NCBI GenBank assembly: GCA_032718475.1
Contig: JAUCBJ010008112.1
Coordinates: 1-64,000 of the forward strand
Direction of reading: 5' to 3'
DNA: 64,000 nucleotides
From: Nemertoderma westbladi
Taxonomy: Eukaryota > Animalia > Xenacoelomorpha
Under the pieces are notes generated by a model. The model saw nothing but the letters and a program-made list of their open reading frames with translations, had not been told where the DNA came from and did not search any database. The position numbers and the translations under genes are program-made. Numbering within the stretch: the first letter of the stretch is position 1; each line of letters begins with the position of its first letter. Positions 483 to 33,270 of the stretch are shown in pieces.

Positions 483-485
483 GTG

Positions 486-3400
486 TACTGTGGAAGATCA
501 CCCATTGGTGGTGAACAGGCATTCCTTTAGGAAACGAGTGGAAGGGTTTACTGGGGAAGATCACCCATGGTGGTGAACAGGCATTCCTTTAGGAAACAGA
601 GTGGAAGGGTTTACTGTGGAAGATCACCCATGGTGGTGAACAGGCATTCCTTTAGGAAACAGAGTGGAAGGGTTTATTGTGGAAGATCACCCATGTGTGG
701 TGAACAGGCATTCCTTTAGGAAACAGAGTGGAAGGGTTTACTGTGGAAGATCACCCATTGTGGTGAACAGGCATTCCTTTAGGAAACAGGTGGAAGGGTT
801 TACTGGGGAAGATCACCCATTGTGGTGAACAGGCATTCCTTTAGGAAACAGAGTGGAAGGGTTTACTGAGGAAGATCACCCATGGTGGTGAACAGGCATT
901 CCTTTAGGAAACGAGAGTGGATGGGTTTACTGTAGAAGATCACCCATGGTGGTGAACAGGCATTCCTTTAGGAAACAGGAGTGGAAGGGTTTACTGTGGA
1001 AGATCACCCATGGCGGTGAACAGGCATTCCTTTAGGAAACAGAGTGGAAGGGTTTACTGTAGAAGATCACCCATGGTGGTGAACAGGCATTCCTTTAGGA
1101 AACAGAGTGGAAGGGTTTAGTGTGGAAGATCACCCATGGTGGTGGACAGGCATTCCTTTAGGAAACAGAGTGGAAGGGTTTACTGTGGTAGATCACCCAT
1201 GGTGGTGAACAGGCATTCCTTTAGGAAACAGAGTGGAAGGGTTTACTGTGGTAGATCACCCATGGTGTTGAACAGGCATTCCTTTAGGAAACAGAGTGGA
1301 AGGGTTTACCGAGGAAGATCACCCATGGTGATGAACAGGCGTTCCTTTAGGAAAGACAGTGGAAGGGTTTACTGTGGTAGATCACCCATGGTGGTGAACA
1401 GGCATTCTTTTGGGAAACAATGTGGAACGGGTTTACTGTCGAAGATCACCCATGGTGGTGAACACTGAACAGGCATTCCTTTAGGAAACAGAGTGGAAGG
1501 GTTTACTATGGAAAATCTCTCGTGGTGGTGAACAGGCATTCTTTCGGGAAACAGAGTGGGAGGGTTTACTGTGGAAGAGCACCCATGGTGGTGAGCAGGC
1601 AATCCTTTAGGAAACAGAGTGGAAGGGTTTACTGTGGAAGATCACACGTGGTGATGAACAGTCATTCCTTTAGGAAATAGAGTGGAAGGGTTTACTGTGG
1701 AAGTTCACCCATGGTGATGAACAAGTATTCCTTTGGGAGACAGAATGGAAGGGTTTATTGTGGAAGATCACCCATGGTGGTGTGGTGAACAGGCATTCCT
1801 TTAGGAAACAGAGTGGAAGGGTTTACTGGGGAAGATCACCCATGGTGGTGTGGTGAACAGGCATTCCTTTAGGAAACAGAGTGGAAGGGTTTACTGTAGA
1901 AGATCACCCATGGTGGTGAACAGGCATTCCTTTAGGAAACAGAGTGGAAGGGTTTACTGTGGAAGATCACCCATGGTGGTGAACAGGCATTTCTTTAGGA
2001 AACAGTAGTGGAAGGGTTTACTGTGGAAGATCACCCATGGTGGTGAACAGGCATTCCTTTAGGAAACAGGAGTGGAAGGGTTTACTGTGGAAGATCACCC
2101 ATGGTGGTGAACAGGCATTCCTTTAGGAAACGAGTGGAGGTGGAAGGGTTTACTGTGGAAGATCACCCATGGTGGGTGAACAGGCATTCCTTTAGGAAAC
2201 AGAGTGGAAGGGTTTACTGGGGAAGATCACCCATGGTGGTGAACAGGCATTCCTTTAGGAAACAGAGTGGAAGGGTTTACTGTGGAAGATCACCCATGGT
2301 GGTGAACAGGCATTCCTTTAGGAAACAGAGTGGAAGGGTTTACTGTGGAAGATCACCCATGGTGGTGAACAGGCATTCCTTTAGGAAACAGAGTGGAAGG
2401 GTTTACTGTAGAAGATCACCCATGGTGGTGAACAGGCATTCCTTTGGGAAACAGAGTGGAAGGGTTTACTGTGGAAGATCACCCATGGTGGTGAACAGGC
2501 ATTCCTTTAGGAAACAGAGTGGAAGGGTTTACCGAGGAAGATCACCCATGGTGGTGAACAGGCATTCCTTTAGGAAACACAGTGGAAGGGTTTACTGTGG
2601 TAGATCACCCATGGTGGTGAACAGGCATTCCTTTAGGAAACCGAGTGGAAGGGTTTACTGTGGAAGATCACCCATGGTGGTGAACAGGCATTCCTTTAGG
2701 AAACAGAGTGGAAGGGTTTACTGTGGTAGATCACCCATGGTGTTGAACAGGCATTCCTTTAGGAAACAGAGTGGAAGGGTTTACTGTGGTAGATCACCCA
2801 TGGTGTTGAACAGGCATTCCTTTCGGAAACAGAGTGGAAGGGTTTACCGAGGAAGATCACCCATGGTGATGAACAGGCATTCCTTTAGGAAAGACAGTGG
2901 AAGGGTTTACTGTGGTAGATCACCCATGGTGGTGAACAGGCATTCTTTTGGGAAACAATGTGGAACGGGTTTACTGTCGAAGATCACCCATGGTGGTGAA
3001 CATTGAACAGGTATTCCTTTAGGAAACAGAGTGGAAGGGTTTACTATGGAAAATCTCCCGTGGTGGTGAACAGGCATTCTTTCGGGAAACAGAGTGGAAG
3101 GGTTTACTGTGGAAGAGCACCCATGGTCGTGAGCAGGCATTCCTTTAGGAAACAGAGTGGAAGGGTTTCCTGTGGAAGATCACCCATGGTGATGAACAGT
3201 CATTCCTTTAGGAAATAGATGGAAGGGTTTACTGTGGAAGTTCACCCATGGTGATGAACAGGTATTCCTTTGGGAGACATAGTGGAAGGGTTTATTGTGG
3301 AAGATCACCCATGGTGGTGTGGTGAACAGGCATTCCTTTAGGAAACGAGTGGAAGGGTTTACTGGGGAAGATCACCCATGGTGGTGTGGTGAACAGGCAT

Positions 3401-4167
3401 TCCTTTAGGAAACAGAGTGGAAGGGTTTACTGGGGAAGATCACCCATGTGTGGTGAACAGGCATTCATTTAGGAAACAGTGGAAGGGTTTACTGGGGAAG
3501 ATCACCCATTGTGGTGAACAGGCATTCCTTTAGGAAACAGAGTGGAAGGGTTTACTGTGGAAGATCACCCATGGTGGTGAACAGGCATTCCTTTAGGAAA
3601 CAGAGTGGAAGGGTTTACTGTGGAAGATCACCCATGGTGGTGAACAGGCATTCCTTTAGGAAACAGAGTGGAAGGGTTTACTGTGGAAGATCACCCATGT
3701 GTGGTGAACAGGCATTCCTTTAGGAAACAGAGTGGAAGGGTTTACTGTGGAAGATCACCCATGGTGTTGGTGAACAGGCATTCCTTTAGGAAACAGAGTG
3801 GAAGGGTTTACTGTGGAAGATCACCCATGTGTGGTGAACAGGCATTCCTTTAGGAAACAGAGTGGAAGGGTTTACTGTGGAAGATCACCCATGGTGGTGA
3901 ACAGGCATTATTTTGGGAAACAGAGTAGAAGGGTTTACTGTGGAAGATCACCCATGGTGGTGAACAGGCATTCCTTTAGGAAACAGAGTGGAAGGGTTTA
4001 CTGTGGAAGATCACCCATGGTGGTGAACAGGCATTCCTTTAGGAACAGAGTGGAAGTGGTTTACTGTGGAAGATCACCCAAGGTGTTGAACAGGCATTCC
4101 TTTAGGAAACAGAGTGGAAGGGTTTACTGTGTAAGATCACTCATGGTAGTGAACAGGTATTCCTTTC
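486..4167. repeat. 63-bp tandem satellite, roughly 58 units, intronic
   Basis: Unit TACTGTGGAAGATCACCCATGGTGGTGAACAGGCATTCCTTTAGGAAACAGAGTGGAAGGGTT repeated head-to-tail. The ORF-track hits here are 21-aa periodic translations of it. Confidence 0.97.
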
Positions 4168-11199: not shown

Positions 11200-13055
11200 T
11201 ATTACATACAAGATTTGTAGCAAAGATTGCTACAATGAACGCACGCACGCTGAAAGCACTTACCAAACAGGGTGACATGGTCGCTCTGGCAATGGAATAT
11301 AACATCGACATCATCTGCATCCAAGAACATCGGATTTGTCATGAAGACACTGCCATGAAGTACAATGACATTGGAAATGGATGGACGTTAGTAACAAGCT
11401 CAGCAGTAAGAAACTGCTAAGAATTATGCTAAGCCCATTTGTACTTAAGACCATAAACAACATCGAATCTATAAATTCCAGGGTTATGATCGCAACATTT
11501 GATGGGAATCCCAAGGCAACAGTTATATGCTGCTACAGTCCAACCAATGCCTCAGAGCCAGAACAAGCAGTCAAGTTTTATGAAGAACTGACTGGACTTA
11601 TTAAGTACATTCCGAAACACAATGTTAAAGTCATTTCTGGTGACCTGAATGCGCAAATTGGCCCAGAAGACATCAAGGGTTACACCTACTGTATAACACC
11701 AGTTCTAACAGAAATGGGTACTTACTTTTAGACCTAATGAAAGAATGTGAATTGATACCAACAAACAACATGGAACCAAAGCACAACTGGATTACATCCT
11801 TATAAACAAAAAGTGGAGAAACAGCATGATCAACTGCGAGGCATACAGCTCGTTCAACCTAATTGGTTCGGACCACAGAATTGTGACTGCAGAGATCAGA
11901 CTCAGTTTGAGAACCAGCAAACCCAGGACAAGCAAGCAAATCAACTATGACTGGGAGAAACTCAGAACTGACAATGCTGTAAAGGATGCTTATACAGTAG
12001 AAGTTCAAAACCGCTTTGAAGCACTTCAGTCAATGGATGAAGACCAATCCACCGATTCAATATACCAGAATATAATAACAGCCCACAAGGAATCAGCTAA
12101 GAGGCATATCCCCCAGAAGCCCAAACGAAAACAGTATGTGCCATGGCAAAACTCTGAGGATACTTGTAAGAGAGAAGATCTTAAGATAGCCTACAAAGTT
12201 AAAACCGAACAACCAACAACCGAAAACATTAACAAGGTTGAGAAAGCTAAGGACGATCTTAAATTGGCCTACAACATCAGCCAGGAAAAGTACATACGGG
12301 ATAAAACTGAAGCAATTATTACAACTGCTCACATACAGCAACAATCAAGACTTACCTGGCAAACTGTAAATGAGGTATCTGGTCGGAAACGTTGTGCAAA
12401 GGGGCGCCTCAAAGCCGATAATCCTGAAGAACGTGTTAGGAAGAGGAAAAATCACTTCAGCAACTTGCTTGGGCATCCACCAAACATCGAGGTCAGCCCT
12501 ACAAGGAAAATATATGACAAGACACTACCTATAGAAACAGGGGACTTCACACCTGCCGAACTCCAAAGAAGCATTAAAAGCATGTCCAATAATAAAGCGA
12601 GTGGATTAGATGAAATCCCAACGGAGGTATGGAAAACCGGAGTGCTAAACAGACCATTATTGAATGTTTGCAACCGGATGTTAAAAGGGGAAAAGCCACC
12701 ACCAATTTGGACTAAAGGTCAACTAAAGCATCTCCCCAAGAAAGGAGACCTCGGCATACCAACAAACTATCGAGGGATCTATCTGCTTGTGGTAGCTGCC
12801 AAAATATACAATAAAATGTATTGAGATAGAGGTAAAATGCTTGAAATCCTAAGAGCTTATGGAATACCAGAAGTAATTGTTACTGGCATTGGATTGCTAT
12901 ATTGTGACACAGAAACGCAGGTACTCTCACCAGATGGTGAAACTGAGTTTTTCTCAATCCTGGCTGGCGTACTGCTAGGTGAAACATTAGCACCATTACT
13001 ATTTGTAATTGTGCTGGATTACGCAATGAGGACGGCCACAAAGGGTGAAGATCTG
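11200..13055 (+). mobile_element. Decayed non-LTR retrotransposon (RTE-like; APE endonuclease plus partial RT)
   Basis: APE motifs ATMNARTL, DIICIQEHR, YSPT, GDLNAQIG, SDHRIV; RT motifs KKGDL..NYRGI and GVLLGETLAPLLF. Frameshifts and an internal deletion near 12824; ends abruptly at the element A LTR. Confidence 0.9.
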
Positions 13056-14152
13056 TGTTCGCGCTTTCAGACCTTTAGCAGTTTAACCTGCCAATTTTAG
13101 TTGTCCTCTTGTTTATAAATCGACTTTAGCCCTTACCAATTACCTGGTGTACTGAAGTTACATCTGCCGAAGCCAGTCCGTGCGCGGCGTATGACCCACG
13201 GTGTGGGAGACTGGATTCGGATTCCTTGGGAAGTATTGCAGTGTAGACCTACTGTATTATTCGATTGATCGCTACTATATAATCTCTGACAACTATATTT
13301 ACTTTCGGGGAAATATTAACAGTTCCTTTAGGACGTGGCGCTTTAAGTATAAAAACAGAGTTATGACTTATACTAATCACAACTAGATGGCCACAGAGTT
13401 TCGTAAATAGCGCATTCTTTAGGAGATGCTTTATTAACCTTCACACTACTTCACATGACTTTACACTACTTCACACTAATTTGCCGACCGTCACTGAATT
13501 TGATCATATATAAGGAGGATTGCAACTGACACACGTAGGGATTATGAAATAGCATTTAATTCACACAAAACCACTATAATTTAACTCGCAGTTGCTACCG
13601 GTAGACTCTATTCCTCTTACCTCAGTAATCAATAAGATTGAGGGGTTTATGATTATTTATCGGTATTCTCCAAATATAACATCAACATCCATTAATATAA
13701 CAACAATTAATACTATAAAACAGAAGTAAAATAGTGCGGTGAAATGAGTTAAGTAAGTAATGTATACAAATGTGAGATGAAATACAGGTGACAAGTTAAT
13801 AGATTTACGTTCTTATAACCAAGGCCATCAGATGTTCCTAGGCTAAAGTCTGAAACTTCCGTACAGAAGCACAGAATTCTGAGTTGGTTCTAATTCTCAG
13901 AAATAATAATAAAGACCATAATGCATTGCGAGTTTCTTAGATAGGGTTCTGTTAGCCGTAAAGTTAAAATTGCTCTGATTGGCTGAATAAGACAGAACAA
14001 AGAACTTCCAAGTACACAAAGAATCAGCTGACAGATTTCGTCATCCTGGTTCCAATTCCTTTCTGACGCATAGTTGAATAATTTTAGGGCTATTTTAGAG
14101 TATTCTGCGCATTGCGTAAAAATGACTTGTTATGTCCGCAAAAGCTTTTACA
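13056..14152 (-). mobile_element. 3' LTR of BEL/Pao element A (~1.1 kb, TG...CA)
   Basis: On the minus strand it begins TGTAAAAGC after a purine tract (GGGAGCAG) and ends GCGCGAACA. It aligns from end to end, in blocks, with 58384-59487. Confidence 0.85.
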
Positions 14153-14230
14153 CTGCTCCCAGAAAATGGGATTTAAGTCTATAAAATATAAAAAATCACA
14201 GTTTCTAAAATACAAAAATACTCTAAACTA

Positions 14231-17200
14231 TTAGTCATTCTTTCGTGAACGGCATTTACGAAGTTTTTTGAGGCTAGTAAGAGTCCTTTTCTCTTTGGGG
14301 CGAGCCACTTTACTAGGAGGGCTATAACTCCTGGGTGAGGGGTGCAATACAATTGCATCGGAAGGTTTCAGATTACAGTCGGTGTATCCGCCAGTCGAGG
14401 TACCCGGTTGATCGATATCAACCTCAGTGGAACGAGGTCGAACAACCTTTAGAGCGCGTTTCAGGACAGCAGCTCTTACTGGTCCCTGACGGGTCGTTTG
14501 CACGATAGCGGTAGGTTGACTGTGAGTAGTGAGAAATTTCCTTGGTTTGATGGTTCTTTCCAACTCGCGTTCTCTGGCTTTATATTCATATGGTCGTCTA
14601 TGAACTTCTTGTAGCTCTGGATGCGAGTTTATGAACAAGTCACCGTATTCCGGATCCTGACGGATGAAGTTGATCAAGTTATAGGAATTCAGGTTATTAG
14701 GATTAATATTCCTAAGATACTTGCGAACAAACTTAGTTGAAATATTCTCGCCAACACGCTTCATCAGCTCGTAGCTAGGAGTGCGAGATTTTTGCTCAAT
14801 GGAAGCAAAGAGATATGGGTGAAATGCATAGATTCCTTCATATGCACGTCCAGGATAGTATCGATGACGTGATTCGCAATGGAGATCCGCGTTAGCTTCC
14901 CAAGCTCTGATGTAACGCAGGGCAACCATTTTGTCTACGCTTTCTAGATCTCGGTTGAAAGGGCAATCGAAACTTGCGTGTCCTTTAAACTGACAATGAT
15001 GACATTGAGTCATAAATTGAGGACAGACTGCGAAGATGTGTAGATTATTGAGTCTACAATACGCACAATAAATCTCCATAGCAGGCTGTTCTTTAAAGTA
15101 GGAGCAGAGTGCGTTGGAGTCCGCCGGGGTAAAGTGATCTCGTGATGCACATAATTGGCAACGTTTCCTAGAAATATAATTGGCATGCCGATAATCGTAT
15201 GCTGTGAGACATTGTGGACCTTGATACCATTCCAGCACATAATCATTGTCACTGCTCCTGGGCGCTGTGGATTGAATCTCCTCGGACTCCAAGCAAATTG
15301 GTTCGTCTTCCAATTGCATAGCTGAGGTAGGTGTAGCTGTTTCCTCAAGGGAACCCACTGTTTGAACTTCCACAATAGAATAACCTGTGGGAATTCGGGG
15401 TCTTTGTATGACAGATGAATGTAGGTTCTGTATACAAACGTCCTTAAAAATGGCGAATCCAGCGCTGTCCAACTTCTCAGCAGCCGAGTCTCTTAAGCTG
15501 AGCTTGGTCAGAGCGCGGTCCTTGAACTGACTATCAACGTTGCGGAACAGAGTCAGAAAGCGCCTAAAGCATTCGAATCGAATGAATTTATTGTGTTCAT
15601 CTAGCTTGGCGAGTTTGGTTCCGAGCAGTAAGGGATGAGCGCGTATAGTACGACTGCACACATCGGCTAGCCAACCGGCAAGTGCGGCGTTCTCGAAGAT
15701 AGTGTATATAGCTAATGAGGGACGGAGTGGAACACTCATAAAGCTATAGACGACGCCAGGTGCGGTTAATGGTCCGTCAAAATATAATCGAGAATAATGA
15801 TCTCCATATATTTGTTGGTAGCTGACAGGGTTTCCGACTTTGAAATTCCATCCGTATTCTTGGAAGGAAAGATGTCCAATAGAGGTTCGTTGTACTTTAT
15901 TGATTCCGCTTGATGTATTAGCATACATAGTTCGGAAGAAACCTCGGCCTTCTGCCCAGGGAGCAATCAGCTGGGTGTCTACGAAAGGATATGGGATATT
16001 CTCCATGTTTCTGAAGTCATTTTGGAGATCTCCATAGATAGCTGAGCCGATTTTAAGGATTCTCTCGTCAAACAGCATCTCGAGCACTGGCTGGGGTAGC
16101 ATATATCCATCTATACCCATGGCCGGTTTGCGCTCGGTATCAGTAACATAACGCTGCGCGAGTTCGAATTGTCCATGTCGGAGTTTCTTTTGTATCTCGG
16201 TGAGAGTCTCAAAAGAATAATCGATCACGTCGCAACACGCTCGAGTAAACACAAGGGTAGAACCAGCTAGTCCTCTTATGTGTATCATTCGCGTAGTTCC
16301 CAGTTCTCCAACCGGAACGCTACCTTCGTTATCGTAAGTAACAACTCCATACATTTCGATAATGTTAAGAGTTTCATTCCACTCTTTAGTGGCGTTTTCT
16401 ATGCTCATACCCACCGGATGCCATAAGGTTGCGCATTCGCTTGCGTTAGGTAAATCGCTATACTTCAGATAATGTGTAGTATGAGTCTCTGCATCTCCGT
16501 ATTGCTGTATTCTCTCTTCCTCGAACAATACATTGAGATTCCAATGGACTAATCGAGTTTTAATAAATCCATCGAGATTATACGGAAGTATTATGTCCTT
16601 TTCTATTCTTGAAACATTATAAGGTTTTCTGAATGAGTTTACCTTAACCAATTGGTCTAAATGTTTCTGTAGTTGTTCGAGTTCAACAAGATCAAGGGGA
16701 TTTATCAATGGTAGAAACTTTAAACTGTATGTAGGATCTTCAGGTTTCACCATATAATATTGAGTTAAATTGACATAATAGGGGTGGTCTTTGATCCCAT
16801 AAAATGAGTTCGGTAAAGGTCTAGCGCGTAGGTTGACCTCGTGTACCATATGACGGACAAGATCCGCCCGATTGTCCGGAGGTTCAACGAGTATACCGTC
16901 GACACGAGCGGCCTCGATTGGCGGACGTTGTAACATAGGAGCGTCAGCGATAAGATCTCTAGATCTTAAGTTGATATCAACCGTTTGGGGTTGTACCATG
17001 GCGAAGAGTTTGTCTCCGAAATGGGGAACCATCGAAGGATGAATGATGGTTTTGGAATAGAGATCAGTCATAAGGATTTTAGCTTCTGGCTGGGCTAAAG
17101 CCGCTTCTTCTCTTTCATCCATTTCGATGTGCTTCTCCTCGAGCTGATTTTCCTCCGCTTCTCATTGGAAGCGTTCGTCCAAAAACTCTTGTAGAGAGTA

Positions 17201-18491
17201 TGTTCGTCCAAGTTCGATATCTTCTTCGAGATTCTGGATTTCCCGATCGAACTGGGGTAAAGCCAATTCCTTTACCGCTTGGACTTGCTGCTGCAATTTA
17301 CGTTTATCTAAACAATCGTAGGTTCCTTTTCAGATCTTTTTTCGAATAGCGTCTAACGCATTTCGTACAACGCTCTCCTCCACTTCGGTGACAGGTTGTA
17401 TCGGAGTTAACCCGGGACGATTATATGGGTTGAATGGCGATATTAGATGTCCGTGTCCCAATCCGGCTAGGTAGGATGGGCGAATATCTAGAGAGCCCAC
17501 AACCGGAGTGCCACCGAATAATTGTTCAGGTAACACTAGATCTTTGAACAATGAATACAACTCAGGAGGATCCGTCATACTATTAGGATCAAGAGCCCGA
17601 GGTCTCACCAGGGAATGAGGAGGTCTGACCGAGTATTCTGGAACTCTGATCATAGGTTTATTTAAGGATCGTTTGAGTCGAGCGAGCGTAGGTGATACGT
17701 CGAACAAGTTTCGCTCGAAACTCCCATAAGTGTAGCTAGTAAAACTGTGTTTAGCGCAACGTCTCCGCGGATGTTTATGTCTTTCCGTTTGTTGGTTGGG
17801 TCTAGGGCATTCATCGCAGTAATACCAAAGACGCATGTCTTGTAGGGGAAACGCTGGTGATCTTTCTCCAGTTTTATAATATTCCTCCATCTGTTCGAAG
17901 CTATCCGGTACAACAGGTAGCGGTTGATCGGCGGTAAGATACATCATAGTGAAATAGAGTCATTTGATTTCTATCATAGGGTTATGATGTATACCTTGAG
18001 GATATCGAGTTTCTAGATTTTGTTGACTGGCTACATTGAGATATGTTTCTCTCAAGAATTCCAAATATTCGTTGAAGTCACTGCGTTTATCCGGCTCTTC
18101 AACATTCAACATCTTCTCTTTCGAGTCGGTTTCGAATATAATTTTCATGTTCGATTCTCAGTTTATCATTCCGACTCCGCTGGGTATGATACTTAAATAG
18201 AATCATTTCCATTTCGGTGTCTACATCGTCCGTATCATGTAAATCGATAGGATGACCAGTAGTTAAGAAGTCCATATACGTACCATTACGATGCGTATAG
18301 CGAGCGGTGAATTTTCTATAGTCCAATTCACGCTGGAGCTGTTCCTTTGACATTGGCGGTTCGATATAGCGGCCATCGTCTTCCGTAGTATGTTGACTAG
18401 CGTCGCCGCTTATTAAGCTATCAACAAACGCTTGCAATGGTGGGGTATATCGCTCCCTGATACCAAGATCATCTTCTATCAACTCAGTCAT
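14231..18491 (-). pseudogene. Element A ORF2: CxxC-CxxH finger + DEDDy 3'-5' exonuclease + three CCHC fingers (~1420 codons, disrupted)
   Basis: ORFs 18099-18491, 17960-18148, 17330-17947 and 14231-17122 join via one frameshift and three in-frame TGA (17960, 17330, 17162). Motifs: YDNEG, LPQPVLEMLFDERILKIGSAIYGD, FVDTQ, YTIFE. Colinear with the C-terminal part of the element B polyprotein. Confidence 0.85.
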
Positions 18492-19604
18492 AGCTGCTAT
18501 ATGAGTTTATCGATATTATAATTGATAATAATTAGGCCAGCGGTCGTTGCTGCCTCCCCCTCAGTGCCCCCGGACAGCGCAAGATCCTCAGCGCTGATGC
18601 ACTGTCGTCGCTGTGCCTCTCGCCAACGTAGTAGCTACACAACGACAACAATAACCAGCGCGAGTCACTCCACTGTCCGTCCCAAGGGCTTAGATATACT
18701 GGAGGTACTTGCTATAGAGGCAGGGTAACTTTCACAACTGCGACTCGCTACTGTAAACACACTTTAGTAGTAACATTCACCTATAAATACACAAATTCCA
18801 CATTCCTGTCACAATTTGTACAAATTCGGGCCATTTGTCCGTTAGTCAAATGCCTTCCAGAATGCCACGTTATTATTATGTATCCCTGGATACTAGCAAG
18901 GTGCTATTTATTCCGCATTCTATTCAATGGGGCAAGCTTTCTATTGTTCTTTTAACTCACTTCTAATTCTAGCGTGGTTGTTGCTATGGTGACATTATGG
19001 AAAGCTAGCGGTAGAATTAGAGTAATTCTCATGCATACAGATCTGGGATGCTATTTAATAGTGATTCTTTAATTGTCATTATTCCCTTTATACATGATTT
19101 TATGAATTTTATCGGCTATTGACTGTACACTGGAGATTCTCTCACACTAATATACTTAATAGGGTGAATCTCTGCTCCCATGATCTATTAATTAATGGAA
19201 TTTTGGGAATGTTATAAATTGTATAAAATGACAATTTATCAAATTCATGAGAGGATATGAATTTAAAATTTATTCCCGTGAATTTTATTATTTGATATTA
19301 AAATAGATACAATTTTATTCCAGAACATAGCTGGGAACTAGGATCCTTAATTCCAGAAATTTGTCTTTTAAGAGTATCGGTAAGTACTACGATACCTTAA
19401 TCGACTAGAATTTTAGAGGATCGAAATTTTTAACAGATTTTGATTTATAAATTTTCTAGAGTCAATTTGTTAGCATTTCCTCTATTTTAACATTTGTTTT
19501 AACAAACGTAATAAATATTTATTACATATTTAATATTTAAGATGGGCACCGATTTATTCCAGAACATGTCTGGGGACGTTAACCACTGATTCTAGAATTT
19601 TGTC

Positions 19605-21535
19605 TATAGAATTATATTCCCTAAATGCCGTGGATTTTCAAAATTTTATTTTATTCGGATTAACTTTTGTAAAGATTGCTTTAAGTTCTCATTCGTATTG
19701 GTTCTATCATTTGTACATCTATCGGTCAAGTGGTTCAGTAGCTCAGTTGGTAGAGCGTTGGAAATTATATGTGTAGTAGGTATCGAGTTCGAATCCTAGT
19801 AAGTGCGAATTATTTTTTGTACAGAATTTCAACTCATTTAAATTAACCGCTACAAATTAATTGCATTCGTCTGTACCAATGAGGCTGTAGTTATTTGATT
19901 GTAACCAATGTCGTGCAAGTTATATATTAGCTGGACCAATAGCTATCTTTAAAACCCCGTTAGAACCCATAGAACAATCGAGAATTTTCTCGATTGATTG
20001 CGGCACAAATTTGCTATATAAAGGTGCGATTTGTTCATTAGTTATCAATCTACACTACTTCAATATTCTCTCAGTTATTTAGTTATCTGATATTTGTTTA
20101 TTCTGTGCTTAGTTTATTCTCAGATTACATTGTATTATAATTGTATCTTCTGTAATAAAGTCAGAATATTCTCTCAGCTTTTCTATCTGTTTTACTATGG
20201 ATTCACTACGGTGAACAAACTCAGGGACAGGATGGCCGGCTAGAGATCGGGCCGCAGCAATGAACGGGAACATCACGGGAATGTAGACGAGAGACAACCC
20301 GCAATACCATCTAGAGTTATTCGCCCATCGCCTGAAAGGTTAGACAGCGTTCGATCCTTGCTACCTAAGTATAAGACCAAAAGATCAAAAGGTAGACGTA
20401 GTGACACGCTGTAAGCCCAAAATTACATCATAGGGACTGTACTGTCTTGATTCAGGAAAACCCACAGTAGACCTTCACATTCCTACGGGGGAGGGAGAGC
20501 GCAGGCAGATACTAGTACGCAGATAGGACGTAGGCACACCGGTACAAGGCATACACATTGGTTAGGGTGCAGCAAACTGTACGCTTAACTCTTGCTAAGT
20601 ACAGGTGCGCGTGCGACTATTTGCAGTACGACAGTGTCCATTGCATTAGAACTTGTAGGCTAGGGGGGTTGCTGTGTTTTCACCTGAATTGGGATTGTAC
20701 CGTTCAGGCGGTAGGGCAGTTTACGTACTAGGCGCAAATAAATTGAGGCTATCAGGGATACTAACATCTACCGTGTCCCCGCCAACGCCCTAATAGGAAG
20801 TTACCCGGACTACCTGGGTGACTAAAATTCTAGATAGGAGCCAGGATAGCTATTAGTACCTGTACGCCTACAGTAGTAAACTAACACATCTCTTCTTAGT
20901 ATCAGGGACCTGGTACCTAAAATTGCCGAATTCTGGGCGTAGTATTAACCTTATGCCTGAATTTGAGTCCTGGAAATACGCAAGAGGGGAAGGAACCTTA
21001 TCATTCGTGAGTATTGGACCTACAAGTTACAAAATTAGAATATTCGTAAATGCACACCGTACCCAGTAATTATATATGTGAAGGAGCAAAACTGTTTTGA
21101 CCGTTCAGAATTAACACACGCGCGTTAGAAATTATTTACACCTCGAAATATATAAAATTAACTTTGTCCGTACTGTGCTTTGCCCGCTAGTTAGACATCT
21201 CCAAATCTCTGCCTGTACCTAGCTAGCGTCCCTTTGCCCAACCATATAAATCACACCGCGGCAAAGTATACGAGCCCCTTAGTCCGTCAGTGAGTCAGCC
21301 TGATTTTAGGATTCGCTGTGCGGGATTTTGTTTTATCGAAGTTTGTCTGCTCGTAGACTGTTTTCTGCCTCACCGGTTATAAGAGATCAATACTGCAATA
21401 TATTCGCTTACTTAGAGTTTACTGTTTTGGTGAGAAGGTCGGATTTATGATTTGATTTACAAACTTTACAGTAAGATATTGCAGGTATTGTTACCGTCTC
21501 TTCCAATAGTAGGAATAGGCGTATCTCTTCAATTA
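19605..21535 (+). repeat. 5' LTR of element B (1931 bp, TA...TA termini)
   Basis: Direct repeat of 33759-35689 (offset 14154). Three substitutions found by eye (19788, 20504, 21319). Confidence 0.96.
19732..19818 (+). promoter_or_regulatory. tRNA-like Pol III promoter cassette within the LTR (second copy at 33886-33972)
   Basis: A box TAGCTCAGTTGG(TAGAGC), B box GAGTTCGAATCC, then a T6 run. No acceptor or anticodon stem of a functional tRNA. Confidence 0.65.
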
Positions 21536-21546
21536 GTAGGAATGTG
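21536..21546 (+). promoter_or_regulatory. Putative self-priming primer-binding site of element B
   Basis: GTAGGAATGTG abuts the LTR end and is the exact reverse complement of CACATTCCTAC at 20476-20486. No TGG-initiated tRNA PBS is present. Confidence 0.65.
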
Positions 21547-22342
21547 TTTTACTGAACTACGGTTCGGTAGGACTAAAGTTATTTGAAAATTTTGTATTTT
21601 GAGGTAAAAATTTGTATTTGATTAGCTAAGTGCTAATTTTAAAATAAAATTTGATTTGAACCGCGTGTAAAATATTTTTGGAATTGAATACCGGTGTTTA
21701 AAAGGGTTTAAATACCATATTGTACCGGTACAAAATTTTCGTAAAGTAAAACCTAACTCTTTTGTTTTTTCAGGATTCAGAACTCATTTCTAGACTGTAA
21801 CGGGAGCAAGACCGTGTTTAGCAAGTTTGGGAGATAGATAACTCAACAACTTTGGTTGGGAAAATCGCGTTTCGTCCGCAACGTTAAAAACGGAAAGGTT
21901 CACGTTCGGTTTGTATCTGGGAATCTGTTTTTCTGGAGAATTATTGGAGTGGGTGAGTTCGAAAAGTTGCATAAATAAGTTAGGCATTACCGTATTAGTT
22001 AAAATTATTGTGGGTTCCACTGTCTCAAGTATTTATGCATTCCGTATGATTTCTTTGTTCATTGCTGAATTAGTCCGTATTATTGTATTTAATTTACCTT
22101 TTGATAACGCATATCGTTATCCGATTTATTTGTTATAAAATTGGCTGCTAGGCTAATTTTATTATATACTTATTCCGTGACATTTATTTGCTGTAAAATT
22201 GGCCGTTTAGGCTAATTTTATCCATCTGCTATAAAATCGGCCGGTAGGCTAATTTTATAAGACTGTAATTAGTACCGTTTTGTATAAATACGGTAAAACT
22301 CGATACTTTGACACTCACTTTACTTGACTTACAACTACCGAA

Positions 22343-25300
22343 ATGAGTGACAAACAAGACTATACGAAAAATACACAAACCGACTATGACTCATGTGACG
22401 CGGATAAGTCAGCAGCGGAAGGACAACAGGGGAAGACTCGCGAGCCTACCGAACCTACACCGTGTGCGTCACCAGTACATCCAACGGGAGTACCGGATGC
22501 CGTAGTACGAGGCGACGGCAGGACCGAGGACTTTCTAACTGTTCCGCAACCTAGATACAGGGAAACGGACATGGTAAGTTCAGCAGGAAGCACAGAAAGT
22601 GTGGTTAGAAGCGTCGGAGGTTACATGGCGCATATAACCAGGAGTATTGGAGAAGGCCAACGCATATTAGACGGGTTGACCGCTCCGATGTCTCGATTCG
22701 AGTTCTACACCCTCCAGGTTAGAGTACAGAGTAAAGTATATAAGTCCGTAGATAATCTAGTTGGCCTACAAGATCTAGCTAGACAGAGACAGGACATGGA
22801 TACTCAACTTAGAATCCTCGAGAAACTAATGATCACTAGAGAGAAACTGATTCAGTTTAAGTCGACGATTAGACAGATACAACAGGAACAAGCGGACCAG
22901 TTGTTAGGTGAGTCAGTTTCGGACGAATTATTACAACCCGAGGAAGAACAGGAACTGTACCGACTGGATGGACAATTAAAACACCTGACGGACCACTTAC
23001 GTATGTGCGGCGAAGACGTCGGAGATTGGGAAACCGTGCCGGAATATACGAAGGAAACTTCACCCGTACGAATTGAATCGGCACCGGGAATACTGGACCA
23101 ATCGTTGGTAAGTATTCGTAGCGAAATCTGCGAGGGAAGTATAGTCACGTCAGAAGTTGCTCGACAACAGCAAGAATTCCACCGACAACGACAAGAAATG
23201 GAAGAACAAGCTCAACTTCTAGTGATGCAAGCAGCAGTAGAGGAAGAGAAGCTACGCGTTGCGAATATAGCAAGAATCTCTCATCTACAGGAACAAGCTG
23301 AATTAGAAGCAGCTGAAGTAGAAAGGTTAGAAGTAGACATTGCCCGACAAGCGGCAGCGGCAGCGGCCGAGGTAGAGCGACGAGCGGCAGCGGCCGAGTT
23401 AGAGCGACGAAACGCAGCGGCCGAGTTGGAGCGACAAACGGCAGCGGCAGAATTACAACGAGAAAGGTTAGTTTCGGAAGCGCGGGCCGAAATGAAAACA
23501 CGGCAAATAAAAGCTCAATCCGCTATACGACAAGCGGAGTTTGAGGCGCAACGACAACAAACGGAACAACGAGAGAAGACAGTGAAACTTCATTTCGAAC
23601 TCGAGAAGAAGGCGAGAGAATTAGCGAACGCCGAGGAAGATTTGGATCAAAAGGCCCGCGATAGATCGATGAGATCTCGTGACGGACATGATTTGGACCA
23701 GTTAGAGGTAAGACATCGCCAAATTCAGGAACGGAAGAAGGAAGGAAGCGTAGGAGCACCCGGACGGGAACGACAATTAGTAAAAGACGTGTGTCAACGA
23801 TTCCCACAGGTAACTCATATGTTTGCACCGGTTACGAGTAAGGAACCTGTTTCGATTGCGGGTAGTAGTGATATTTCTCCTATCCATGGTGCGACGGAAC
23901 ACAGGTTTGTTATTCCGGACGAGTTTACACCGCCAAGAGCAACGTCGTCGCCCATTCCGAAAGTCAAGGTAAGTAACCCACCGATTACGGATCGTAGTAG
24001 TTTATTGACCGGACCTGCGCTACTGACGACAAAACAGGTGAGTCCACCGTCGACACCTAAACCCGTTACACACTACGCTTACCCAATGACGTTTCGACCA
24101 ACAAGGCCTTTGGATTCAAATGCTGTCATTCGCCCACCGAACCAGTTTACATCGCAATCTACGACTTCGAGGAAGACTTGTGAGCCTACCGAACAACGGA
24201 GAACAGAGACGCGACCATTCAACCATTTTACATCGCAATCTACGACTTCGAGGAAGACTTGTGAGCCTACCGAACAACGGAGAACAGAGACGCGACCATT
24301 CAACCAGTTTACATCGCAATCTACGACTTCGAGGAAGACTTGTGAGCCTACCGAACAACGGAGATCAGTGGACGATGTTCCGAAACGAAACGTGAGAATT
24401 CGTACGACGCAACGAACGCGAGCACGTCGACCACCATATCCGGATGATAGTAGTACTTCGAGCGAATCGGATTACCCGAAACGCGAGGTATTTAGAACAG
24501 GGGCGGCCGATGAATATAAACGCGAGCGTTCAGACAACTCCTTTGCAGACAATCCTCCACAGAATACACCAACACAGAAGGCGTTACAACCAACGGACGC
24601 AATTAGTACACAACAGTTCGCCGACATCCTGCGACCAGTTGTTAACAAGTTGGCTCAGATCGAGGAACGTCTGGAGGAAGGTTACACCGACAGTTCGAGA
24701 AATTCCGAATTCGAACACAATAGACACCCGAAGGAACCACAAAGACCGGTACCTTCAAACCCCACATCGTATCAGGGAAAAGCGCCAAGAAGGGATATCA
24801 ACCAAGTTACCAACCAAGGACGCGAAACTCTGAACGTTGCCGAGGAGATAGCGAAATTCGCAGCCAGACAGGGATTGCCGGTACAACAACCACCGAAGTT
24901 CTCCGGTAGCTCAAAACACTGGCATACCTTCGTAGACTATATCGAATCCCAGATCGCCGTGTGCGCCTTTACATCACGGGAGAAGTTCAATTACTTGCTC
25001 CAAACGTTGTCAGGAGAACCTAAACGTTTGGCGGAGACTTTCGTCGGTGTACCGGACGCTTTCGAACTAGCGTACGATCGTTTAACTTCGATATACGGAG
25101 GTACAGTGAGCATGGCCAGGTCAGTAATAGAGGAACTCTGTAAGGGAGGGGCTATCACTAAACCCGTCGACTTACTAAAACTAGCTGACGAGATCAAGAA
25201 CGCTATCACTACCTTAAGATCAATTGGACAACTTGATTACGGGAATACCCCTACAGTCCTATTAAAGATAATAGGACGACTCCACCATCGACTTCGTCGG

Positions 25301-28300
25301 GAGTGGAGGAAGGTCGAATACCAGCGAGAGGAGCGGGGAGGATTCTTAAAATTAGAAGATGTGTACCTTTTAATATCCAGGGAGGCGGTAGTAGAAACTC
25401 GATCTAACTACACCGACCAGCACATCGTGGCAGAAGGAATCACACTGCCATCCTCTAACCGACAAAAACCCCAGACAACATCCACTAAGACGGCCACTTA
25501 CGCCACACCGACGGAATCACGACAATTCTCAGACGGTAATAGAGTATCTGCGCCCATTGGGACGAAACAGACGAGACAGCAACTCAGCACCGACTTCAGT
25601 GGCTGCCAATACTGCGAGCATCTAGGTAAGCGGTATATCGGTCACAAGTTACGAGGTTGTCGACAATTTCGCGAGTTGAACTCGGAAGAACGACGGCTGC
25701 AAATACGGCCACTGGACTCTTGTTGGCGGTGTACGCGACACGGACACGTCCGTAAAGACTGCCCAAATACCGACACTTGTCCATCCTGTGGACGCAATCA
25801 CGACGGTCTGCTCCACACAGACAGCCACACGCCGACGAAACGCTTCGCCAGGGAACACCCGGAAGCAGCAGCGAGATGTGATGCGGCTTACCAAAAACGA
25901 GAATCAAAAACGACTCCAACCTTCGTGACCCATATTGAGGATTGCTTCTCAGAACAATCCGGATCGTCGGATGAAGAATCAGAAGACGACGATGAATATT
26001 CCAATGGAGACGAACAACCGTCGATCGCGCTCCTGACTACTGATCAACTGAAGGGATTCAGTGTAATCCCGATTAAGGTTACTGGCACAAAGGGGAGCAA
26101 GAGGATCTATGCGATTCTAGATTCAGCCTCATCCCATAGCTACGTGGACGAAAAGATAGCTGACGTCGTGACGGATCTAAAACAAGGTAAGCACGTCAGT
26201 TATACAGTAAGTAGTATGCACGGACAGCGTGCAATACCAGTGACACGAGTCAAGTTAAACTTAGACTCTCTTCTTCCAAAATCGCAACACAGCGAGAGGG
26301 AGAGGTCTTTGTTGCCCTTTAGAGATCTAACCTTTGCGGCTACGAAGGACTTTAGTAACCTACTAGGTCCAGTACCGGAACAATCTCTAGAGGACCGTAA
26401 GTATTTCAGACACCTTGGTGTACCCGAATGTCCTGTCAATTATAGATCGGTAGCAATGCTGATCGGGACAGACCAATTCAACCTACATCAGGTGTGGGAA
26501 ACCAGACCATCGGCAGTTGTAGCGGGAAACGCATACGCCTGCAGAACGCCGATAGGGTGGTATACTCGAGCGCCTGTGCGCACACTAGACGTAAGTGACG
26601 AGGAAGACGATGTACAGAGTACATGTAGTTTATTAACTACAAATTCAATTCATTCCTTTTCACACGACGTGAACCATACTACACTACAGTCGACAAAACA
26701 CGACAGACGTGTAACTAGTATGATAAGTCACAAGGAGCAGCTAACCCACAAGGTGAGTTTAGAACTTGGGGAGAAGACGAGTCAGCTGGAGATTCCATCG
26801 ACGACAGATGATAGGCTTGCGAGTCTACCTACCCCAATAACCTCAACAGTGCCCGTCGATATCGATGATGACGCGTTGAGAAATCATCAGTTGGAACAAG
26901 CCGCCTTGGACAAAGAATTAACGGAGAAGACTATCAGGTGGTTAGAACAAGATACAGCTGAACCTGGTAGCTACGAACCTTGTATGTCGGAACAGGAGAA
27001 ACAATCTCTGAAGATCATGGAAGATACTATCCGCCAGACGAAAGACGGACATTATGAGGTAGGGATGTTATGGCGTAGCCAAAGTCCTAAACTTATAAAC
27101 AACTATCCACTGGCTTTAAGACGTCTACACTCAATACGGCAACGTCTATTGAAGGACGAGAAAGCCCATCTGCAGTATAACACTCAGATGGAGACGTATT
27201 TGACAAAGGGATACGCTATCCGAATGACTAACCCGGAGCGAGTGACCGACCAGACGTACTACTTGCCACATCACTACGTGAGACACCCCGACAAACCAGA
27301 CAAAGTACGTGTAGTCAATGACTGTGCGGCTCTGTTTGAGGGAATGTCCCTCAATAGTGAGTTGATGGATGGACCGAACATGAATAATTATCTTATGGGG
27401 GTGATTATGCGCTTCCGTCAGCGTCAAGTAGCCTTTACTTGCGACGTTGAAGCGATGTTTCACCAAGTAAAAGCGTTAGAGCGAGACAGAGACAGTTTGC
27501 GGTTCCTCTGGTATCCGGAAGGAGACTTAAGCCTACCACCAGCGACTTACCAAATGCAAGTTCGCGTTTTCGGTGCCAGAGACAGCCCAAATTGTACGAT
27601 GTACGCCCTAAAGCAAGCCGCTAGGGATCAGAAACATCTATATGACCCAGAGATAATTAGAATTGTGGAGCGTGACTTTTACGTTGATGACGGATTACAG
27701 AGTTGCGACACAGTAGAACGTGCTACAACAGTAGCACATCAATTACGGGACTGCTTGGCGGGCGGAGGTTTTAACCTCACCAAATTCGCCTCAAACAGTG
27801 CCGAATTAGTAGACTCATTCGGAACTACTGAGCGTGGAGGTGGTGACATAGACCTAGAGTTCGAACCACTACCGACGACTAAGGTGTTAGGGCTCTTTTG
27901 GGACCCAAACACAGACAACTTTCGAGTGAAGGTGAGACTGGACAGTCAAGGGAACACACTGACAAAGAGATCATGCTTGTCAAAATTGAGCCGATTGTTC
28001 GATCCGTTAGGATTCATCAGTCCAGTGATACTGCAAGCCCGCATTTATATGCGCAGTATCTGGAAGGATGGACTAACATGGGACGAGCCGATCTCATCAG
28101 ACCAAGTGGACTTATGGAAGACCTGGGAGGCGGAATTATCTTCGCTAGAGGATTATTTCATACCCAGGGTTTACTTTCCATTGCAAAGTACATTTCCTGA
28201 CAACTTGGAACTACACTGTTTTTCTGACGCCAGTGACAACGGTTTTGGTGTGGCAGCGTACTTACGCAGACAAGTAGAATCAGACGAGTTCGATGTTTCG

Positions 28301-31300
28301 CTCATTACTTCTAAGGCTAAGACCATGCCTACTAAGTATATGACGACACCACGAGCCGAGCTACAAGCCGCAACCCTGTCAACCACCATCGTGAACCTCA
28401 TACAGACAGAACTACAGTCGAGTTTACAGATATTTTATTGGACTGACGCGACGTTGGTTTTATTTTACATAAACAACGACACACTCGAATTCAAGACATT
28501 CGTTGCTAACCGTCGCGCGGAAATTCTAGACCGTTCAATAAAAGGGGATTGGCGACATTGTCCCGGACCACAAAACCCAGCTGATATTGCGTCGCGAGGA
28601 ATGATGCCTGAGGAATTCTGTAAACCGGAGAACAAAGAGTTTTGGCAACACGGACCCCAGTTCTTGCAGAAATCGACACAAGATTGGCCTCCGTTATACG
28701 ACAACAAGTCCAACACTATTCCCAAGGACGCCGAAATCAAGAAACCAAAAAAGGGGAAGACAAAGAAAAAGACGACGGCGGCGAAACTCAAGAAAAAACC
28801 GAAGGCGAAATGGAAAGATATAACTTCAAAGGTCAAGAGAGGAAGACTTGCGAGCCTTTCTACACCAGACATATCGCCAGACGGTCAACCAGACACGTTA
28901 CCAGACGGTCAACCAGACATGTTACTAGACAGCCAACCAGACATTTTGCCAGACATATCACAAAATGTTCCACCAGACGCTAGTAACACACTGACAAACA
29001 GTAAAGCCGCAGTTTCCCTATTGGAGCGGCCTTCTATTGACAAACAACCAGATACGTTACTAGACGTATCGCCAGACACATTACTAGACAGTCGACTAGA
29101 CACTAGTAATGTATTGACTAACAATAAAGCCGCAGTTTCCCTATTGGAGCGGCCTTGTATTGACAAACTACCAATTTTGACACACTTGAGCAACCATAAG
29201 CACGGTGAAACCTCATGTATTACAGATGTTAACTACACCCTAATTATGGAGAAAGGGATACAAGGAGAGCCGAGATGGGGATATGATATCCAAGAGGAGG
29301 CAGCAGCACCATTCGAAAGATTTGGAGCCAAGGATTATACTATATTCGGTATAAAAGAATTATCGGAAAGTACAGCGAAACTCGCGAGAACTAAATATGA
29401 CTCGAATGTATTAAAGAGAAGGCAAAACGCATTGAACGAAAGAATCGAAAGTTTGCGCCAAACCTTCAACGAACTTTACCCGTACGATGCTTTGTGTGAT
29501 ACGGGAGACATTAGCGAAGACCCCGATACTGAAATTAGTCGTTTGTATCATACCATGCAATACCTAAAGGCGCACGAACCTATGCCCGCGGTACGCGATG
29601 AATTCGATGGAATGCATCTTTACAGACGAACTCGAGGGGACGATAGAGAAACCAAGGAAGCATTTTCAGTTTATAAACTTTATTATCAATGCGGTTCTTG
29701 TATGCGCGAACAACGAAATGCGATTCCGATGCGTTTGAATAAGGAAAATCCCGAACCGATATTGGCGAGGTGTTCGAATCATCAACAACTACGCTACCAG
29801 GAAGGAGGGTATCCTTTATCGAATCCATATCATTCATTTGCTATGACCGGACCAAAGGCGGGAGAAACTGTCATTTACCCACCTAAGGTTGTTGAACCCG
29901 ATGTATTTGAACTTACGCTGGACGAGGCGAATCAGTCAACCCGCGAAAAGAAAGAAGCTCTTAGCCTATACAGAGCCTACAAGGCTTTCGAGAAAGGTGA
30001 GATGGAAGAATGGGGTGGAAGACTCGCGAGCCTACCTTGCCATTGGACGTCACACGATCAAACTTCAGCTAAGGAGATGACACCGGAAGTTTTCGAGAGC
30101 ATAAACTTTGCTCAAAACGTTATTCAGAGACTACAGATTGCATCCCCGGAGAGGCCAAGAGAAATGCAACCGTATAGTACTTCAACTACGAAACCATTGA
30201 GTACGACACTCAATTTCCCTATTAGTATACCAGTCCGACAGGATACGACGTACGAAATACCCATCGTGGATCATCCAGAAATCATTTCAAACTTGGAGTT
30301 TCTTCCTGCAGTTGTTTTCAGCGATATGAGTAAGATATATGATTTACGTAGACATATTACTCAAAAGGTCGTGCACAACGTTCCACCTCATATTCAAGAT
30401 TTCAAGGAACTGGATAGAGCTGGTGCCGACATAGCTCCGAGTAATCTGAAAGGATATCTAACCAAGACGATTCGTTTATGGATTGGAACCGGAACCTTCG
30501 AGTCGGATACAGATATTGCCGCAGATTGGCGAGGTAAGGTTATTCGTTTCGATGAGGATAAGGATATAGAGAAGATTTGGCAACCTTCGGAAGAATTGTT
30601 GGATGAATGGACTAGGACGTTTAGATCGTTTCAGGAAAACGGTTATATGTTTTACGATAACGAGGGCGGCAGTCATCAGCAGAGTTTGACTTCTAAGACT
30701 ATACAGATTAGAGCGGCGGACGGAGTCCTGCACGTTTTCAGTAGACAGAGGAGCGACAAACGAATGCCGATACCTCCAGCGAATACAAAGCGACACCATC
30801 TTATCACCGATATAGTAAAGAAGATGGACCAAGCTTGTAATATTGACGCTAGAATGCTACCGAAGATGGTAAGAAACATGATTTTAGATAAAACTGTTGT
30901 AAAGGTTGGATCAGGAGTAAGGGAGGATTTAATTAGCGACTTCGCCGGCATGACGGACAGCGATGACCGACTACCGACACCATACGTCGACACTCGACCT
31001 CTTATTCTGTGGTCTATAGAACAGGGATATTTTCGTGAGTATAATACTCAGAAGACTGGAACTGGATACATTTCCTACCTGTTATTCAATTGGGATTATA
31101 AGGAAGGTAAAAGAAACAAGTATATTGAAACTTATGGAGAAGGTGATACTCCAGATATGAGTGAGTTTGAATCACAGCTTAAATGGAGAGGATGCGTGTA
31201 TTGGGCTATTACGTCACCTCCAAGAGCGGTCTTACAATATTATTTAGCAATAGAGTCGTCAGTGAATGTTTGCCTAATCGCCGACATCGTGTCTCGGACT

Positions 31301-32971: not shown

Positions 32972-33057
32972 AAGGGAGGGCAAGGGTGGACGGAAGACTC
33001 GTGGGCCTTTCTTATGATTTTGTGATTTATTTGAATTTATATTTATATTTGTGTTTA

Positions 33058-33270
33058 TTCCGAACTTATGCAATTTATATTATTCCGAACTTATGCAATT
33101 TGTATTGTTCCGAATTTATGAAATTTAGAAATAAGAACTTATATTTAGTAAAACTTATATTTAGTAAGAATTTATATTTTATATTTACGTGATTATTTCG
33201 AACCTATGCAATTTATATTATTCCGAACTTATGCAATTTATATTGTTCCGAATATTATGCAATTTATATT
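33058..33270 (+). repeat. AT-rich ~25-bp degenerate repeats in the 3' UTR of element B
   Basis: Recurrent TTCCGAACTTATGCAATTTATATT. Confidence 0.7.

Follow-up and report, generated by a model that had tools for sequence, protein, structure and literature searches.

A candidate accessory exonuclease and zinc-knuckle module shared by two nested BEL/Pao retrotransposons of Nemertoderma westbladi

Introduction

The stretch of Nemertoderma westbladi DNA analysed here (GenBank assembly GCA_032718475.1, contig JAUCBJ010008112.1, positions 1 to 64,000; hereafter the window) contains nested BEL/Pao long terminal repeat (LTR) retrotransposons, with element A on the minus strand and element B inside it. 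Downstream of its pol, A carries a second open reading frame (ORF2) with the motifs of a DEDDy-type 3'-5' exonuclease followed by zinc knuckles of the CCHC type, and a homologous segment is found in B. The locus raises the question of what this exonuclease-like module is, whether it is a gene of the elements at all, and what a retroelement could do with it. Accessory nucleases are rare in retroelements, and none has an assigned role.

Results

A and B share an exonuclease-like and zinc-knuckle module

We compared the proteins encoded by the two elements. The open part of A ORF2 (14231-17122, minus strand; 963 codons, TAA stop at 14231-14233) aligned by BLASTP with the tail of the B frame over 748 positions, 209 of them identical (28%; E 1e-61), and an upstream piece with an LY motif and a pair of Cys-containing half-sites matched between the elements at E 2e-9. 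This similarity is far beyond chance. Measured from stop to stop, A ORF2 comprises 976 codons (14231-17161).

The exonuclease-like domain of A occupies 15587-16393 on the minus strand and contains ExoI (YDNEG, 16322-16336), ExoII (KIGSAIYGD, 16028-16054), the sequence FVDTQ (15971-15985) and ExoIII (YTIFEN, 15689-15706). It is followed on the same strand by three CCHC knuckles at 14963-15160 (C655/C658/H663/C673, C686/C689/H695/C700, and C707/C710/H715/C720 of the 963-residue protein) and by a conserved C-terminal domain, which begins WEANADLH (14675-14902) and for which no known fold was found. The same order is seen on the plus strand in B, where LYHTMQYL (29543-29566) and a C-x2-C...C-x2-H finger (29690-29782), both in frame with Pol, precede an exonuclease-like domain at 30605-31327 with ExoI (YDNEG, 30653-30667), ExoII (KVGSGVRED, 30902-30928), YVDTR (30983-30997) and ExoIII (YLAIES, 31241-31258), then three CCHC knuckles (31841-32020) and WEDLADEH (32084-32107). 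All motifs that the first-pass annotation of this DNA had listed for both elements, from LYxTMxYL through W(E)xxADxH, are thus present in A and B where it had placed them.

Of the three fingers, the third has the classical C-x2-C-x4-H-x4-C knuckle pattern; the spacings in fingers 1 and 2 are longer and specific to the family. Over the 13 aligned rows of the family in which the fingers could be compared (see below), 11 of the knuckle Cys/His positions are invariant and the His of the first finger is nearly so, which bears out the earlier count of three fingers in each element and extends their conservation to the family. We also looked for transmembrane segments. The highest mean Kyte-Doolittle value over 19 residues was 1.19 in A and 1.38 in B, below the usual 1.6, and both peaks fall within the exonuclease domain; with no transmembrane-like segment, the module protein is not env-like.

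Relatives of the module retain most catalytic residues

To find relatives, we ran HMMER with a profile of A and B against 1.84 billion representative proteins, and 18 proteins matched at E up to 1e-3 (best 4e-13); all of them are unnamed and stem from metagenome or read-assembly sources. Eleven of the 18, with 535-752 residues, are built alike, with an exonuclease-like domain at the N-terminus, then a linker of low complexity, then three CCHC fingers, and finally a C-terminal domain starting FE..AD. When A and B were compared with the profile of these 11 relatives (hhalign), the match had a probability of 99.9% and E 2.9e-31 over 479 columns, and it covers the exonuclease domain, the knuckles and the C-terminal domain. 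Word-index protein searches (a near-length search with P0001, the family alignment, and residues 1000-1563 of P0007) returned only the query itself; fused or split forms may exist.

The catalytic positions were examined in a 15-row alignment of A, B, 12 of the 18 matches and one cluster mate; P0007, P0010, P0014, P0017, P0019 and P0020, which mostly match the finger region only, were left out. The relatives have an overall identity of about 20%, yet nearly every row retains ExoI D/E, ExoII D and ExoIII Y. The ExoI Asp is found in 13 of the 14 rows that have the column and the ExoI Glu in 14/14, the ExoII Asp in 14/15 and the ExoIII Tyr in 15/15. At the position four residues after this Tyr, nine rows have D, two have N and four have E, namely A, B, P0005 and P0008, so that the Y-x3-E variant is common to A, B and 2 of the 13 aligned database relatives. 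Two earlier observations are upheld by these counts: the YxxxE form of ExoIII is real, and the retention of acidic residues in the diverged A and B holds for the Tyr too and for most relatives.

One metagenomic relative, P0007, connects the module to BEL/Pao elements outside the window. Its single frame of 1563 residues joins a DUF1759 gag and an aspartyl protease to the exonuclease motifs and to three CCHC fingers. The link between the module and BEL/Pao is therefore present in three instances (A, B and P0007), of which P0007 is the third, independent one. Another relative, P0010 (633 residues), has a degenerate exonuclease domain and carries the unit of knuckles and FEKFAD in two copies.

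The domain is predicted to have a DnaQ-like exonuclease fold

The family assignment was approached with profiles against sequences of the PDB. For a profile of the relatives only, the matches were the exonuclease domain of EXD2 (E 3.8e-12) and Egalitarian (E 8e-5); with A and B included, they were EXD2 (E 4.5e-12), Egalitarian (7e-5) and the WRN exonuclease (1.3e-3). In the profile alignment, the family's ExoI, ExoII and ExoIII fall on DCE, ED and YAARD of EXD2, and the ExoII Asp aligns also to ExoII of WRN. In A ORF2, Pfam found only a sub-threshold zinc knuckle. Among 11 relatives, four reached the exonuclease family PF01612 at E up to 1 and none passed the cut-off, the best being P0013 with 23.3 bits against 23.6. 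As the module stays below this cut-off, we file it as a homologous sister family and not, by the Pfam rule, as a member of PF01612.

We then modelled residues 215-512 of A with AlphaFold2 from the 15-row alignment (predicted local distance difference test, pLDDT, 69.7; predicted template modelling score, pTM, 0.73) and searched for similar folds. The top PDB matches by Foldseek were the Nibbler EXO domain (E 1.8e-4), RNase D, EXD2, Egalitarian, the WRN exonuclease (template modelling score 0.62 on the target) and Trypanosoma brucei RNase D. VIA-align gave Z 12.7 for NrnC, 12.1 for WRN (root-mean-square deviation 3.2 over 170 residues), 11.9 for Nibbler and 11.6 for RNase D; EXD1 (Z 10.8), Egalitarian (Z 10.5) and T. 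brucei RNase D (Z 10.2-10.6) were also matched; among the matches listed, 50 of 50 entries were 3'-5' exonuclease domains. In a library of viral structures the model matched DnaQ-like exonucleases of giant viruses and family-A polymerases of phages; the named matches there were DnaQ-like or RNase H-like, save two otherwise named, and there were unnamed rows as well. The predicted fold of the domain is thus DnaQ-like, as in WRN, EXD2, Nibbler and RNase D, and the domain is very probably, judging from profiles and model together, a homologue of EXD2/WRN/RNase D-type (DEDDy) exonucleases. This agrees with the first-pass annotation, which had proposed a WRN/EXD2/Mut-7-like DEDDy exonuclease and would have dropped the proposal if structure prediction and fold search gave no DnaQ-like fold; both gave one.

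The knuckles and the C-terminal domain were modelled separately (A residues 640-835, pLDDT 71). No known fold was found for this model: Foldseek returned nothing at E up to 1e-3, with T. brucei RNase D as its best match (E 2.1), and the best score in the wide VIA comparison was Z 2.0. The nearest matches of the fingers themselves were T. brucei RNase D, retroviral nucleocapsids and Lin28. A loose resemblance of the fingers to Nanos-type RNA binders, which had been suggested earlier, was not recovered, as no Nanos appeared among the PDB profile matches (E up to 10), the 11 Foldseek rows or the wide VIA comparison, although absence there is not exclusion. In the ESM Atlas, the nearest cluster was one with the architecture of T. 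brucei RNase D (score 0.89, 173 of 256 features), which we take as a lead only.

In element A the module is a separate, interrupted frame after pol

On the minus strand, gag and pol of A extend over 36334-43756 in four open pieces in all. They include gag (40983-42890, with DUF1759 by Pfam) and the two pol pieces (39350-41008 and 36334-39075), in which Pfam found Peptidase_A17, Integrase_H2C2 and DUF5641. An in-frame TGA lies within conserved reverse transcriptase (RT) sequence at 39350-39352, and pol contains one frame change in addition. A therefore carries both an integrase and the exonuclease-knuckle module, the latter as a separate frame after pol. When B is excised, the distance from the stop of A pol (36334) to 18506 is about 1.74 kb, in agreement with the earlier estimate of about 1.75 kb for a co-oriented downstream frame.

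The first-pass annotation had placed a stand-alone ORF2 at 14231-18491, but that span is not a single open frame. The ORF2 frame is broken by TGA at 17162-17164, 17330-17332 and 17960-17962. The piece at 17330-17959 (minus strand), which contains LYFTMMYL (17936-17959) and C-x2-C...C-x2-H (17747-17818), is in the ORF2 frame and separated from its open part by in-frame TGA stops, whereas the next open piece upstream, 18099-18506 (minus strand), is in a different frame and showed no significant match when compared with element B. The earlier description of the module as a stand-alone ORF2 in the position of env fits A only, with the frame interrupted, and does not fit the other two instances: the module is the C-terminal part of an in-frame gag-pol in B and stands after gag and protease in P0007.

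The putative 3' LTR of A (13056-14152, minus strand) is weakly shown, through partial similarity to regions upstream of gag. Its TG start at about 14152 lies 79 bp beyond the ORF2 stop, as the earlier placement about 80 bp before a 3' LTR had it, but the match that makes it an LTR is weak: the region of the TG start resembles 47218-47481, upstream of A gag, with 73% identity over 232 columns. The segment 13056-13720 resembles, with 68% identity over 710 bp, the region upstream of the gag of a third, A-like BEL/Pao element. This third element (61477-63999, plus strand, with 58800-59487) runs off the window, and its DUF1759 gag DNA is 83% identical to the gag region of A.

Tandem repeats were also observed around A. 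A 63-bp satellite with copies about 85-96% alike forms a 3.7-kb array at 483-4166 and occurs again at 45116-46242 (about 1.1 kb), upstream of A gag, where the 5' LTR or leader of A would be expected. A run of five 59-bp tandem repeats, of which three are identical, lies at 43705-44058, at the upstream end of the first open piece of A (43088-43756).

In element B the module is fused to Pol and no integrase is detected

Element B (19605-35689, plus strand) is 16,085 bp long and nested in A downstream of A pol. Its LTRs (19605-21535 and 33759-35689, 1931 bp each) are 99.85% identical, and it is flanked by a 5-bp target duplication, TTGTC (19600-19604 and 35690-35694). B is a true insertion into A. 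We examined Logan contigs of this organism's DNA runs (120-300 bp each; contig sets denoted X1, X2 and X3). Loose ends that pass from 19600 directly into the sequence to the right of B numbered 29 in X1 and 12 in X2; other A-type copies without B therefore exist.

A single frame of B (22328-32971, plus strand; 3546 codons, with one in-frame TGA at 31379-31381) encodes gag, RT, Peptidase_A17 and then the module; DUF1759 and Peptidase_A17 were found by Pfam. The exonuclease-knuckle module is the in-frame C-terminal part of this gag-pol frame and stands at the place expected for integrase: homology of B to A pol ends after the Peptidase_A17 region, and homology to A restarts in the module. No integrase was found in B by Pfam, and the best BLASTP alignment of B to the A integrase had E 0.96. 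This alignment, between the zinc-binding part of the A integrase and the LY...CxxC region of B, is at chance level and was not used. B is a recent insertion of a multi-copy family despite having no detectable integrase, and it presumably relies on integrase supplied in trans.

The rest of the B polyprotein is repetitive in places. Three in-frame repeats of 81 bp (24131-24373) lie in the 850-residue N-terminal part before gag, and two of about 115 bp (28936-29173) in the linker before the module. Neither the N-terminal 850 residues nor this linker matches any family, and an ESM Atlas search with the linker (residues 2150-2660) gave a best score of 0.79, which is uninformative. A primer-binding site usually starts with TGG, complementary to the CCA end of a tRNA. 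The sequence just inside the 5' LTR of B (21536-21560) does not start with TGG, and the window contains no tRNA genes with which a primer-binding site could be compared.

Both families are multi-copy and the B stop is private to this copy

The same contigs show that both families are multi-copy in the DNA runs, with 34,207 X1 contigs on A 13000-19604 and 4,453 on B 27600-32000. They cover the stretch of B from RNase H to the exonuclease evenly, and the A ORF2 region matches its flanks in repetitiveness. In a few contigs, the two sides of a 2.0-2.5-kb deletion are joined and most of the exonuclease module is gone, in A-type as well as B-type copies (14579-17124 and 29379-31530).

At the position of the B TGA, all covering contigs (10/10 in X1 and 2/2 in X3) read another letter than the window does, so that no other copy covered shares this stop. 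Each of the five in-frame stops breaking conserved coding sequence of A and B is TGA, and TAA is the natural terminator of A pol, A ORF2 and B; there is no CpG depletion (observed/expected 0.87-1.23). The use of TGA as a sense codon was considered and rejected as the main explanation, because frame changes also break A and because the B stop is private to this copy.

Elsewhere in the window, an open frame at 53180-54481 (minus strand) with RVT_1 (E 3.6e-28) and DUF6451 belongs to a retroelement unrelated to A and B. Inverted repeats of 98% identity (51569-51815 and 52540-52787) lie near this frame.

Discussion

The combined results suggest that the module is an accessory, exonuclease-homologous part of two BEL/Pao elements, which would trim single-stranded 3' ends of element RNA or cDNA in the replication complex. 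We assign this reading, which is built on sequence and structural models, a probability of about 60%. The domain would be active by two-metal 3'-5' hydrolysis, with a Glu replacing the last Asp, and it would act on 3' ends that belong to the element itself, be they of RNA, primer or cDNA. By analogy with the CCHC fingers of T. brucei RNase D, the knuckles could hold the strand a few nucleotides upstream of its 3' end. The B module would be carried into the particle within Gag-Pol, and the protease would then free it.

Several observations weigh against this proposal. Pfam found no exonuclease in the A and B segments even at E up to 10, and a profile of A and B alone found none among the PDB sequences, so that the link to exonucleases rests on intermediate sequences and on a medium-confidence model from 15 sequences. 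The second-best sequence match is Egalitarian, a non-catalytic RNA adaptor. The last acidic residue in A and B is Glu and not the canonical Asp, with the carboxylate retained. Catalytic residues are missing from some relatives: two positions read S and N in P0013, one reads N in P0015, and P0010 retains neither the ExoI Glu nor the ExoII Asp nor the ExoIII Tyr. At least some members can therefore do without catalysis. The linker between exonuclease and knuckles has about 140-250 residues, compared with 28 in T. brucei RNase D, and a ruler-like geometry need not carry over from that enzyme. Finally, the window copies of both A and B are broken by in-frame stops.

These points bear on the other explanations as well. 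The losses in P0013, P0010 and P0015 and the change from Asp to Glu in A and B would be expected of a catalytically inert RNA-binding adaptor for packaging or transport, of the kind of Egalitarian, EXD1 or Maelstrom. The rank of Egalitarian in the sequence search and the presence of EXD1 among the fold matches point the same way. The near-complete retention of ExoI D/E, ExoII D and ExoIII Y at about 20% identity argues in the opposite direction, as does the carboxylate that Glu preserves, and we find an inert adaptor unlikely. A somewhat better, still doubtful case can be made for a counter-defence nuclease acting on host RNAs, which would trim or destroy small silencing RNAs in the manner of Nibbler and Mut-7 or strip host-added 3' oligo-U tails by means of U-binding knuckles. 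Nibbler is the top Foldseek match, the nearest architecture is that of a U-tail trimmer, T. brucei RNase D, and the presence of DEDDy ORFs in unrelated retroelement classes, as reported in the rotifer study (PMC5408684), suggests a generic role in host interaction. The ranking of DEDDy folds is flat, however, with Z 10.2-12.7 over NrnC, an apicoplast polymerase, WRN, Nibbler and RNase D, and so provides no specific link to small-RNA trimmers; in addition, the fusion of the module to Gag-Pol in B and to gag and protease in P0007 would confine it to particles.

The architecture of B invites a different idea, that the module is a proofreading or end-repair nuclease coupled to RT, or that it takes over the function of integrase in B-type elements. 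B is 16 kb long with a frame of 3546 codons, has the module at the place of integrase and no detectable integrase, and is recent and multi-copy despite that, and the fold is that of the proofreading domains of family-A polymerases. Against this, A has an integrase as well as the module, the 5-bp target duplication of B is as expected from an integrase acting in trans, and nothing links the module physically to RT. We know of no DEDD exonuclease that performs strand transfer, which further counts against a stand-in for integrase, and as a general account this explanation is very improbable. Restricted to the B lineage, where the module would have taken the place of integrase and either served as an RT-coupled proofreading or end-repair nuclease that allows giant LTR elements (compare the ExoN of nidoviruses) or opened a route of insertion without an integrase of its own, the idea is likewise very improbable. 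Least credible is that the frame is a captured host-gene fragment or a chance ORF between pol and LTR. The A copy is broken, about 1.7 kb without an open frame separate it from pol, and the LTR pair of A is poorly supported, but the same module is in frame in the B polyprotein and in P0007, A and B match at E 1e-61, and the DNA runs show the region and its flanks to be equally repetitive. This last explanation is largely refuted. The trimming of the element's own 3' ends therefore stays our preferred reading, with the probability given above.

The findings extend the DEDDy add-on from gypsy-like and Penelope-like elements of rotifers to BEL/Pao, and they define a composite module, exonuclease plus three CCHC knuckles plus C-terminal domain, that is found also in unnamed proteins of metagenome assemblies. 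They also reveal a lineage in which the module forms part of Pol and integrase is missing. The module offers a concrete protein for learning what a retroelement gains from a 3'-5' exonuclease, be it the processing of ends, fidelity, or a way to escape RNA tailing or small RNAs.

Comparison with known systems

The closest cellular architecture is that of T. brucei RNase D (PDB 7c42-7c4c), which combines an Exo domain with four CCHC fingers, the first two of which bind nucleotides 5-9 from the 3' end, and is a mitochondrial trimmer of guide-RNA U-tails (PMC7797062). The present module resembles it in the order of its parts, a DEDDy-type Exo domain ahead of CCHC fingers in tandem, with weak matches to both parts (7c45 E 0.0044; Z 10.2-10.6). 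It differs in having three fingers instead of four, a linker 5-9 times longer than the 28 residues of the trypanosome enzyme, an extra C-terminal domain and a retrotransposon setting, where the trypanosome protein is cellular.

With EXD2, the WRN exonuclease, Nibbler/Mut-7, RNase D and NrnC, the module shares the predicted fold and the order ExoI-ExoII-ExoIII with Tyr; unlike them, it is below the Pfam cut-off and has the ExoIII Glu in A and B, and those cellular proteins are without the knuckle and C-terminal module. It is similar to the exonuclease-like domain of Egalitarian (PDB 9uju, 9rvy) in sequence (E 7e-5) and in fold (Z 10.5). Egalitarian is an adaptor in RNA localisation whose nuclease residues are not known to be required for its function; the present family, in contrast, keeps its nuclease residues. 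The classical third finger is like the knuckles of retroviral and retrotransposon nucleocapsids and of Lin28, to which the matches are weak, but unlike nucleocapsid knuckles the fingers follow an exonuclease and are not in Gag.

Add-on exonucleases in LTR retrotransposons are already known. According to Rodriguez, Kenefick and Arkhipova (2017), DEDDy-type ORF3s occur in the rotifer LTR elements Juno and Vesta and in Athena/Terminon Penelope-like elements, with one acidic residue changed to Glu (DEDD to DEED), and 3'-end processing was suggested for them without an activity assay (PMC5408684). A DnaQ-like exonuclease is also listed among the known accessory domains of LTR elements in a 2019 opinion paper (PMC6338049). 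In common with the rotifer ORF3s, the module described here has an RNase D-like exonuclease of the DEDDy type, a place after pol in an LTR element, and one acidic residue changed to Glu. The hosts are different, Ty3/gypsy-like or Penelope-like in rotifers and BEL/Pao here, and a full-text literature search, which did not cover most subscription journals, returned no description of a BEL/Pao element with an exonuclease. The text of the rotifer paper makes no mention of 'CCHC' or 'zinc' and gives only a Cys-His-Cys motif in Vesta2 and Vesta5 (PMC5408684), compared with three knuckles and a C-terminal domain here. By that description, the Glu in ExoIII and the fusion of the B module to Pol in place of integrase also set the present module apart. 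What differs here, judged on these comparisons, is the BEL/Pao host, the fixed Exo-3xCCHC-C-terminal module as a family of its own below the Pfam threshold, the ExoIII Glu and the integrase-less fusion in B.

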